64,000 nt of DNA from Candidatus Bathyarchaeota archaeon (GTDB lineage: Archaea; Thermoproteota; Bathyarchaeia; 40CM-2-53-6), in contig CAVPLU010000012.1 in NCBI GenBank assembly GCA_963706285.1, positions 109,344 to 173,343 of the forward strand, written 5' to 3'. The first letter of the stretch is position 1, and each line of letters opens with the position of its first letter. Position numbers and translations under genes: made by a program. Below the pieces are notes generated by a model, which was given only the letters and a program-made list of their open reading frames with translations, made no database searches and was not told where the DNA came from. This document shows positions 8,842 through 40,176 of this stretch, piece after piece.

Positions 8842-9129
8842 TCAGCTCTCCTCCATCATCGTAATAGCTTTCATGGGACATTCGGTGGCGCAGATCCCGC
8901 ATCCTTTGCAGTAATCATAGCTGAACTCGATTGTCTTCGGTCCGCGCAGGATCGCAGGTTCTGGGCAGTAGATCCAACATATCAGACAGTTTGTGCATTT
9001 TTTTGCATCCAAGGTCGGACGCTTGAGTCGCCAAGTTCCGGTCTTGTTTCGCTCAGCAGATCCGGGAGTCACAAGTACTGCGCCCATAGGCAGCGAACTC
9101 CATCCGGGCTTGTCTTCTGCTGCGCTCAT
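8842..9129 (-). CDS. porD: oxidoreductase delta subunit (2x[4Fe-4S])
   Basis: KTGTWR, CTNCLICWIYCP, YCKGCGICATECP. Confidence 0.93.
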   Translation of the reverse strand: MSAAEDKPGWSSLPMGAVLVTPGSAERNKTGTWRLKRPTLDAKKCTNCLICWIYCPEPAILRGPKTIEFSYDYCKGCGICATECPMKAITMMEES

Positions 9130-17692: not shown

Positions 17693-17960
17693 CGACGAGC
17701 GCTAGGACCACCGCGCCGCATCCTTTCTGTCTGAACTTCGATGAGCTCCAAGCGCGTTTTGATTACTTTTGATGGTGAGTTGCTGCATCTTCGCGACATC
17801 TGGAGCTTCCATGATAACAATTCCGAATTCTGCGAATCCACAGTGACCAGAGAGTGGACACTCGCTTTTTCGCGCCCAGTCGCAAGTCATCAACACTGCG
17901 GATCAAGAAGATCCGGATGTGAAGGTTTTTACGGGCACAAGCGCTCTCAACTGTTTGCGT

Positions 17961-18125
17961 AGCCCGGTGGTGTAGCGGTCAAACAGCCTAATGGACTAGG
18001 CATAGCAATGGCGCCAGACCAATGAGGCCACTAGATGGCTCTGGATCCCGCACTAGGAGAAGAAACCTGCCGACGGGAGTTCGAATGGTTCGTTAGAGAA
18101 CCCGAACATCTCCCCCGGGCTACCA
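17961..18125 (+). tRNA. tRNA-Gln(CUG) with four introns (17983-17999, 18008-18036, 18045-18064, 18086-18108) and encoded CCA
   Basis: Spliced product AGCCCGG TG GTGT AGCGGTCAA GCAT A GCAGG CTCTGGA CCTGC CGAC GGGAG TTCGAAT CTCCC CCGGGCT ACCA (76 nt); BHB-type motif at each junction; TTTTTA about 30 nt upstream. Confidence 0.9.
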
Positions 18126-18213
18126 TCAACCACCGCCATTAGATTAGAGGTGGTTTCTCATCAGGGCAATCAACGCCATGACCCACGCCTTTCCGGCGTT
18201 GATGAGAACTCTC

Positions 18214-18250
18214 AAAGCGGCCCCTCTTTCCCGGAAAGCGGCCCCTCTTT
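18214..18250 (+). repeat. 16-bp direct repeat with 21-bp period
   Basis: AAAGCGGCCCCTCTTT at 18214-18229 and 18235-18250. Confidence 0.8.
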
Positions 18251-18426
18251 GGAGGATGTGATCAAGCACCATGCTAGCGGTCCACCACCTAGACGGCAAC
18301 AAGTGCAATCTTCTACCCGTGGAATCTGGCTCAACTGAGGACTCTCCTGCTGTGACGAGCCTGGCGTGACTCAAATCCATGCATCTGAACCCAAAGACAT
18401 CATTATGCTTCCAAGAAACCGATTAG

Positions 18427-39615: not shown

Positions 39616-40176
39616 TTAGGCCTTGAACCAGCGGAAGACCAGATAGTCCATCTTGGCTTTCTTCTTCTTCGGAACTGCGATGGTGAATTGTTTTCTCACA
39701 GTGGTCGCAAGTCTACCGGCTAGCACAATCTCGAACGGACCCATCTTGTCGTTCTCGGTTCTTCCGGTCACTATGAAGGGCGCATGGTCAATGCCGGGGC
39801 CATGCTCATAGACGGCAAAATCCGATCCGAATCGAATTCCTGGAGTAACGATGAATCCTTGATTGCGGAGGTCCTTGTAGACTGAATAGCCAAGTTCGAA
39901 GTTCTTGTATGTAACCGCAGCTAGCTTCATCAACCGAGCACGAGTTATCGGTTTTCTAGTTTTCGTGTCAATGACATTGATTCTCCTTTTCTCTTGAAGG
40001 TAGAGCGCCTCCATCATGTCCAAGACTAGGGGAGCAGAGAATTCCTGGTCCGGTTTGGGTTTTGGGATGCCAACCGGTTTTCCAAAGAATCCTTGTCGGT
40101 AGATGGCCACGCCGTCTCTGGGTTCCCATACAATGAGTCTTGTCCCTACGAGTTCAGCAACTGTCTTGCCAGGCAA
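39616..40176 (-). CDS. endA: tRNA-intron endonuclease, catalytic subunit
   Basis: VYKDLR, GIRFGSDFAVY, DHAPFIV, RLATTVRK (Tyr-His-Lys triad); loop GFFGKPVGIPKPK. Confidence 0.95.
   Translation of the reverse strand: MPGKTVAELVGTRLIVWEPRDGVAIYRQGFFGKPVGIPKPKPDQEFSAPLVLDMMEALYLQEKRRINVIDTKTRKPITRARLMKLAAVTYKNFELGYSVYKDLRNQGFIVTPGIRFGSDFAVYEHGPGIDHAPFIVTGRTENDKMGPFEIVLAGRLATTVRKQFTIAVPKKKKAKMDYLVFRWFKA

Follow-up and report, generated by a model that had tools for sequence, protein, structure and literature searches.

A predicted tRNA-Gln(CUG) gene with four BHB introns in a Bathyarchaeia genome whose detected tRNA genes are all interrupted

Introduction

Bathyarchaeia are among the most abundant archaeal groups of sediments and wetlands. 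In the split and tri-split tRNA genes of Nanoarchaeum equitans and Caldivirga maquilingensis, separate exons are joined by BHB and EndA logic. For Thermoproteales, intron transposition was reportedly proposed by Fujishima et al. in 2010. The available portions of papers from 2015 (PMC4390854) and 2021 (PMC8450103) give at most three introns per archaeal tRNA gene. Three introns each are found in tRNA-Glu(UUC) of Pyrobaculum calidifontis and tRNA-Pro(UGG) of P. islandicum (PMC4390854), and P. calidifontis is the densest genome cited, with 71 introns in 46 genes, or 1.54 per gene (PMC8450103). Valentin-Alvarado et al. 2024 found 92-95% of tRNA genes interrupted in three Asgard genomes (PMC11291895), for which an October 2026 preprint (10.64898/2026.10.13.758758) counts 2.2 intervening sequences per gene and an Asgard maximum of "up to five in a single gene". 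The available part of the preprint's main text holds no mention of Bathyarchaeia. Nuclear tRNA genes of the red alga Cyanidioschyzon merolae have up to three introns (PMC3728597). Our literature search returned no paper describing tRNA introns in Bathyarchaeia, and the Asgard preprint was the sole source of a count above three per archaeal tRNA gene.

We analysed a stretch of 64,000 nucleotides (the window) from a Bathyarchaeia MAG of 2.13 Mb in 21 contigs (89.2% complete, 7.5% contamination). Within it lies what is very probably a single functional tRNA-Gln(CUG) gene, whose sequence predicts a precursor of ~165 nt that carries four BHB introns and would be spliced to 76 nt. The gene shares with those of Thermoproteales its short BHB introns, which occupy non-canonical as well as canonical sites, 29/30 and 59/60-type positions among them (PMC4390854), a host with two-subunit EndA, and the failure of simple tRNA finders to detect such genes. 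The gene differs from those of Thermoproteales in having four introns instead of three, two 8-nt micro-exons and a host among the Bathyarchaeia, and the genome carries about 2.4 introns per gene where P. calidifontis carries 1.54 (PMC8450103). A preliminary description of this DNA had pointed to Thermoproteales for multi-intron tRNAs; three-intron genes do occur there, but the host here is a Bathyarchaeia MAG. It had also suggested that four introns may lie at or beyond the known maximum, and four does exceed the three printed in 2015 and 2021 but falls short of the five in the Asgard preprint. Four introns per gene is thus no longer a record, and the lineage-level pattern in Bathyarchaeia appears to be unreported.

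The likeness to the Asgard genomes, as far as the available portions of those studies describe them, extends to the interruption of nearly all tRNA genes, at an average above two intervening sequences per gene, to the many introns in the D arm, the BHB-compatible boundaries and the repeated gain, and also to the many genes missed by standard annotation and the origin of the genomes in wetland samples. The present host belongs to a different phylum (Bathyarchaeota, on the TACK side), and the maximum is four here as against five there. C. merolae likewise has multiple and ectopic BHB introns, which occupy the D arm, the 37/38 site and the T loop, but in a eukaryotic nucleus and alongside permuted genes (PMC3728597, available portion), whereas no permuted or split tRNA form was found in the present genome. 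In contrast to the split genes of N. equitans and C. maquilingensis, tRNA-Gln(CUG) is contiguous and predicted to be cis-spliced.

Results and discussion

Gene structure and splice motifs of tRNA-Gln(CUG)

The coordinates and lengths first described for five exons and four introns were reproduced exactly on re-slicing, with introns accounting for 89 of the 165 nt.

17926..17931, + strand: putative promoter, TATA-like box TTTTTA, 30-35 nt 5' of the mature 5' end
17961-18125, + strand: tRNA-Gln(CUG) gene, 165 nt, five exons and four introns
17961..17982, + strand: exon 1, 22 nt, acceptor 5' strand, U8, D-stem 5' strand and D loop to A21
17983..17999, + strand: intron 1, 17 nt at 21/22, relaxed BHB
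18000..18007, + strand: exon 2, 8 nt, positions 22-29
18008..18036, + strand: intron 2, 29 nt at 29/30, relaxed BHB
18037..18044, + strand: exon 3, 8 nt, positions 30-37, anticodon CTG at 18041-18043
18045..18064, + strand: intron 3, 20 nt at the canonical 37/38 site, relaxed BHB
18065..18085, + strand: exon 4, 21 nt, positions 38-59
18086..18108, + strand: intron 4, 23 nt at 59/60, strict hBHBh'
18109..18125, + strand: exon 5, 17 nt, position 60, T-stem 3' strand, acceptor 3' strand and discriminator A, ending in the encoded CCA (18123-18125)

The TTTTTA box is a putative archaeal promoter element of the gene; A/T-rich boxes at equal spacing lie 5' of other tRNA genes in the genome and of the Gln(UUG) paralogue. 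The joined exons give 76 nt, which ARAGORN calls tRNA-Gln(ctg), in line with the 76-nt cloverleaf with encoded CCA that had been proposed. In this call the acceptor stem has 7 bp, the D stem 4 bp (two of them G-U) and the anticodon and T stems 5 bp each; the variable loop has 4 nt, and the 3' end has discriminator A and the encoded CCA. In the literature on GatDE and tRNA-Gln, the archaeal tRNA-Gln identity features are an anticodon CUG or UUG, a first pair A1-U72 and discriminator A73. The spliced molecule has anticodon CTG, an acceptor A1 pairing with T72 and discriminator A, and these features recur at each of the 29 loci, orthologous or paralogous, as well as in the intron-free genes described below.

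A pair-by-pair check agreed with the motif details given earlier for all four sites, namely a perfect 59/60 motif, one mismatch each at 29/30 and 37/38, and cuts two bases into 3-nt bulges around a 4-bp helix (H); by BHB geometry, the cut position in every intron follows base 2 of the 3-nt bulge. Intron 4 is a strict motif, in which H is a perfect TTCG/CGAA helix with bulges AA^t and ca^T, h' has 5 bp and the T stem, also of 5 bp, serves as h. Introns 1-3 are relaxed motifs, with 3-4 of the four H pairs formed and an h' of 2-4 bp. In intron 1, H is GGTC/GACT with one G-U pair, the bulges are AA^a and ag^G, h' has 2 bp and an adjacent outer helix is absent. In intron 2, H is ATAG/CTAG with one A-G mismatch, h' is TGGC/GCCA and the outer helix has 2-3 bp. 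In intron 3, one C-A mismatch and one U-G pair occur in H (CTCT/GAAG), h' has 3 bp and the outer helix consists of the first two anticodon-stem pairs. Local minimum-energy folds recovered the BHB clearly for intron 4 only and partly for intron 3.

Intron 2 would use G31 and C32 in its outer helix and intron 3 would use them in its helices, so that the complete motifs of these two introns cannot form together. This mutual exclusion probably means that introns 2 and 3 are removed stepwise or are recognised through a relaxed core (H + h'). In C. merolae intron removal is ordered and set by motif stability, according to the available portion of PMC3728597, and the same may hold for introns 2 and 3 here.

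Detection by tRNA finders and chance controls

Standard finders had been expected to miss the gene, and those that we ran did so. ARAGORN reported 0 genes over the whole window and made no call on the unspliced precursor in intron mode; Rfam gave 0 matches over the whole window at the gathering score, and RF00005 gave 0 on 17901-18200 even at E<=10. We used a custom parser that walks the cloverleaf columns backwards from the encoded CCA and may skip segments that obey a relaxed BHB rule. At the locus its optimum, at cost 7 and free of stem mismatches, has the same four introns, and the only alternatives were weaker placements of intron 1 at costs 9-10. As the parser proposes introns through the BHB rule, its own agreement is partly circular, whereas the evidence from alignment and intron-free homologues is not.

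Run over the whole genome, the parser gave 33 hits at cost <=13. In the control, a reversed and uncomplemented copy of the 2.13 Mb genome read in one orientation, and thus half of the real search space, the best of 44 hits cost 14 and none cost <=13. The structure of tRNA-Gln(CUG) therefore exceeds chance. An assembly artefact, or a chance cloverleaf arising from the free choice of eight boundaries in 165 nt, might be suspected given the many possible boundary choices and the 7.5% contamination of the metagenome bin that the sequence comes from. Besides the control, what stands against such an origin is that the intron-bearing structure recurs in contigs from independent runs and, at 95% identity across 223 nt, in a genome of the same genus, and that orthologues from 10 families have the exons in common. 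We hold an artefact or chance origin to be exceedingly improbable and treat the locus as a genuine interrupted gene.

Conservation of exons and motifs and intron-less counterparts

The locus was searched by BLAST against 40 relatives, and the 76-mer was then aligned in spliced form to 30 fetched loci, at 29 of which a tRNA-Gln gene was recovered; the remaining locus, L027, was spurious as a tRNA-Gln locus and was left out. The exons are identical at 75-76 of 76 positions in all eight nearest orthologues, which come from two genera, and exon 1 is the same in all eight bar one C>T in two of them. The introns in these orthologues are 10/18 to 29/29 identical (21-29/29 for intron 2), or are missing, or lie at different sites. 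When intron boundaries were set by exon alignment alone (91 introns at 29 loci), they obeyed the BHB rule in 87 of the 91. Boundaries shifted by -15 to -1 or by +2 to +15 did so in 0-6 introns and those shifted by +1 in 18, the latter because many junctions slide by one identical base.

All 29 tRNA-Gln loci of the order have an intron at 37/38, and introns 1, 2 and 4 have exact intron-less counterparts among relatives. L028-L030 and L035-L038 lack intron 2 and have positions 22-37 without a break, and intron 4 is missing in L031, L032, L034 and other relatives. In other orders of the Bathyarchaeia, ARAGORN found intron-free 76-nt genes for tRNA-Gln(CUG) and tRNA-Gln(UUG) at all eight loci scanned, which come from four of the five genomes searched in those orders, and the sequence is uninterrupted across all four junction positions. 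Intron-free tRNA-Gln genes with an encoded CCA are L057-L064 and L066, in genomes G056, G062, G072 and G092. The genomes with intron-free tRNA-Gln genes have near-normal RF00005 counts of 36-45 per genome.

The same comparisons bear on whether all four segments are introns. Fewer than four would be real if, likeliest, intron 1 were retained as an enlarged D loop or were cut at other boundaries; its 2-bp h' without an adjacent outer helix and the costlier placements offered by the parser would suit this reading, and the Asgard preprint (10.64898/2026.10.13.758758, available portion) says that software leaves D-arm insertions in the "mature" tRNA. Yet precisely these 17 nt are missing from relatives (L020, L022-L024 and others), in which 17982 directly abuts 18000, and from DNA alleles seen in three metagenome runs, where loose contig ends carry the end of exon 1 directly before 18000. 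The intron-free genes of other orders moreover share a D loop of identical length, 9 nt, with the spliced tRNA-Gln(CUG). The H helix of intron 1 is retained by compensatory change, GGTC/GACT in the CUG gene covarying with GGAC/GTCT in the UUG paralogue, and its pairing is 4/4 in the orthologues L019, L021 and L025. We consider a lower intron number very unlikely and retain four introns in what follows.

The gene with its introns was also found, piecewise, in contigs of four wetland metagenome runs from four studies. A 94-nt contig spans 17958-18051, from exon 1 to intron 3, with 0 differences, and a 155-nt contig spans 18022-18176 with 3. Variants inside 17961-18125 occur at 10 substitution and 5 indel places, 15 of 15 in introns; relatives and strains are non-independent samples, and the placement is given without a P value. 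Among the 24 runs, no RNA run carried the locus, and the contigs compared are DNA only. Two small Nanopore metatranscriptomes contained almost none of the sequence words sampled.

Turnover of introns in the D arm and T arm

Within the genus, orthologous tRNA-Gln(CUG) genes carry at least four different intron sets:

Set A: 21/22, 29/30, 37/38 and 59/60
Set B: 21/22, 29/30, 37/38 and 53/54
Set C: 29/30, 37/38 and 53/54
Set D: 9/10, 29/30, 37/38 and 53/54

In the same-genus loci L019, L020 and L022-L024 and in L025 of genus g4, the 59/60 intron is absent and an unrelated intron lies at 53/54. A T-arm intron lies either at 53/54 (13-17 nt; L019, L020, L022-L025) or at 59/60 (23 nt; L017, L018, L021), never at both, and its site differs even inside one genus. 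This difference could reflect independent gains or replacement. We infer that the four tRNA-Gln(CUG) introns arose inside this Bathyarchaeia order, whose tRNA genes are generally heavily interrupted.

Genome-wide load of tRNA introns

RF00005 matched the genome 16 times, 13 matches being full-length and 3 partial; the full-length ones are 88-129 nt each, all with CCA directly after. The parser returned 30 hits at cost <=11, and after splicing ARAGORN agreed on 30 of 30 with the same anticodon. These represent 28 distinct mature sequences, with two near-identical duplicate contigs and two slightly different Arg(UCG) variants among the hits. The 28 tRNAs carry about 66 introns, or 2.36 per gene, and 0 of the 28 detected genes are uninterrupted; the census depends on CCA and motif and is a lower bound, of about 46 genes expected. 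One doubtful parse, t29 (Val GAC, with introns after positions 32 and 33), was kept in the totals. Among the 28, six have four introns each, namely Phe(GAA), Gln(UUG), Arg(CCU), Glu(UUC), Gln(CUG) and Asn(GUU), and four introns are thus unexceptional in this genome.

Predictions with five or six introns were rejected; all cost >=13 and had long introns, and the mature sequences of t32, t33 and t35 were non-tRNA-like and resembled control hits. The parser thus found no credible five-intron tRNA gene in the genome. Intron transposition between tRNAs was likewise set aside: blastn-short among the 66 introns matched only the 59/60 introns of Gln(CUG) and Gln(UUG), and the absence of detected similarity between the introns of other tRNAs is a difference from Thermoproteales. 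The tRNA genes at G000:C20:1503-1613 and 9022-9127 and at G000:C1:14034-14186 are identical or near-identical duplicates of C4/C6 genes with matching flanks, probably as strain-level redundancy in the bin (7.5% contamination).

As a proxy with groups defined by taxonomy, counts of RF00005 per genome were taken from genomes >=90% complete, with the present genome (G000, 89.2%) included in its family, f1:

Window's family (f1): range 10-16, median 13.5, n=8
Other families of the order: range 14-30, median 19, n=18
Other orders of the class: range 17-46, median 34, n=65

The genome was also checked for another Gln(CUG) tRNA, and only one such gene was found; the MAG is 89% complete, and a further copy could therefore be unassembled. 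This result bears on whether the locus might instead be a decaying pseudogene with four insertions that makes no working tRNA, CAG being read by another copy or by tRNA-Gln(UUG). The incompleteness of the MAG would leave room for such a copy, three of the four motifs are imperfect, orphan copies of exon 5 lie elsewhere in the genome, and no RNA run among the 24 carried the locus. Decay is at odds, however, with exons that stay at 75-76/76 identity over eight orthologues from two genera while the introns diverge, with the confinement of all 15 population variants to introns and with the BHB geometry retained in 87 of 91 homologous introns, as well as with the lack of a second Gln(CUG) gene among those found. 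In addition, all the other detected tRNA genes are likewise interrupted, and they cannot all be pseudogenes. We judge a pseudogene highly improbable and favour a functional gene.

Splicing enzymes

Genes for the enzymes expected to process the precursor are present in the genome, one of them in the window:

39616..40176, - strand: EndA of the catalytic type, 186 aa, PF01974 87.9 bits, about 21.5 kb from tRNA-Gln(CUG)
G000:C6 (L052:1474-1998), - strand: second EndA paralogue, 174 aa, non-catalytic-looking, PF01974 44.8 bits
G000:C4:105729-107043, - strand: RtcB, in two overlapping reading frames

The window EndA scores 89.2 bits against TIGR00324 endA (cut-off 59.6) and matches over its full length PDB 2cv8_A (E 4.4e-40) and 3p1z_B (E 1.6e-37) as well as the catalytic chains 3ajv_B and 2zyz_B. 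The C6 paralogue stays under the TIGR00324 cut-off and has weak matches to the beta-subunit models NF007085 and NF007086. Judged by these matches, the two separate EndA genes represent the arrangement of the crenarchaeal alpha2beta2 heterotetramer, and the window EndA is the enzyme expected to cut the tRNA-Gln(CUG) introns. Crenarchaeal heterotetrameric EndA reportedly cuts relaxed motifs, an ability that Hirata et al. in 2011 are said to have traced to a Crenarchaea-specific loop of the alpha subunit. The alignment of the window EndA with 2cv8_A has no gaps over query residues 30-50 (the GKPVGIPKPKP segment), which may indicate that this loop is present. The RtcB profile PF01139 is covered whole, in two overlapping frames (profile 1-243 and 236-426), which may reflect a frameshift, an assembly error or a split gene. 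The EndA type was rejected as the cause of intron accumulation, as two paralogues are also present in four of five genomes from other orders, and four of the five other-order genomes examined for EndA yielded intron-free tRNA-Gln genes. The two-subunit EndA thus permits introns without explaining them.

Reading the gene structure, motifs, conservation, intron-free homologues and enzyme content together, we propose that transcription would yield a precursor of roughly 165 nt in which each of the four introns could fold as a BHB, one strict and three relaxed. The two-subunit crenarchaeal-type EndA would then cut after the second bulge base at each junction, with introns 2 and 3 taken out in steps or through the relaxed core, and ligation of the five exons by RtcB would complete a tRNA of 76 nt that has A1-U72, discriminator A and the encoded CCA.

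Implications for tRNA intron gain and annotation

On balance, and with some reserve, we favour the view that this Bathyarchaeia order is a third independent archaeal lineage with near-total tRNA interruption, after Thermoproteales and two Asgard classes, and that the condition arose after the split from orders with intron-free tRNA-Gln. If so, about 2.4 introns per gene and six four-intron genes among 28 would match or exceed the Asgard record holders, and the rapid turnover within one genus (53/54 vs 59/60, 9/10 vs 21/22) would offer a natural system for intron arrival, the step that both Asgard studies leave open in their available portions. Because close relatives differ in their intron sets for one and the same gene and sister orders have intron-free orthologues, the clade could illuminate tRNA intron gain. 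Introns have reportedly been thought to shield tRNA genes from integrating elements, an idea attributed to Randau and Söll in 2008, and the clade could serve to test this intron-protection idea.

With four BHB introns and two 8-nt exons, the predicted gene would be near the fragmentation limit for a 76-nt RNA gene rebuilt by one enzyme pair. Standard annotation makes the lineage look short of essential tRNAs, with 10-16 RF00005 matches in family f1 as against a median of 34 elsewhere in the class, and tRNAs missed in this manner affect MAG quality scores and codon-usage inferences for Bathyarchaeia.

Paralogue, orphan exon copies and flanking repeat

The tRNA-Gln(UUG) paralogue at G000:C4:264371-264535 (+ strand) has four introns, at 10/11, 21/22, 37/38 and 59/60. 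It matches the Gln(CUG) locus at 91-95% identity over its 3' half, its 59/60 intron and some 150 nt of 3' flank, and intron 4 of tRNA-Gln(CUG) is 95.7% identical to the 59/60 intron of Gln(UUG).

Orphan copies of exon 5 with about 200 nt of downstream sequence lie at G000:C3:122445-122669 (- strand, 95% identity) and G000:C18:10363-10573 (- strand, 82%), and their homology starts exactly at the boundary of intron 4 and exon 5. Metagenome contigs show the same junction type, with a loose end before 18109. The copies superficially resemble the 3' half gene of a split tRNA, a reading that was rejected: a partner with a complementary leader was not found in the genome, the roughly 220 nt upstream of each of the C3 and C18 copies showed no 5' acceptor strand, and no BHB emerged when the C3 junction was paired by hand. 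They were also rejected as attachment sites, as the genome contains no PF00589 integrase and the neighbours are housekeeping genes.

The sequence just downstream of tRNA-Gln(CUG), at 18175-18331 of the window, belongs to a dispersed repeat, of which 11 contigs of the genome carry at least 15 partial copies. The summed metagenome contig depth over its region 18209-18242 is 2673-2902, compared with a few hundred nearby. A tandem 15-mer occurs in the repeat, as does an inverted repeat with TGATGA-like boxes.
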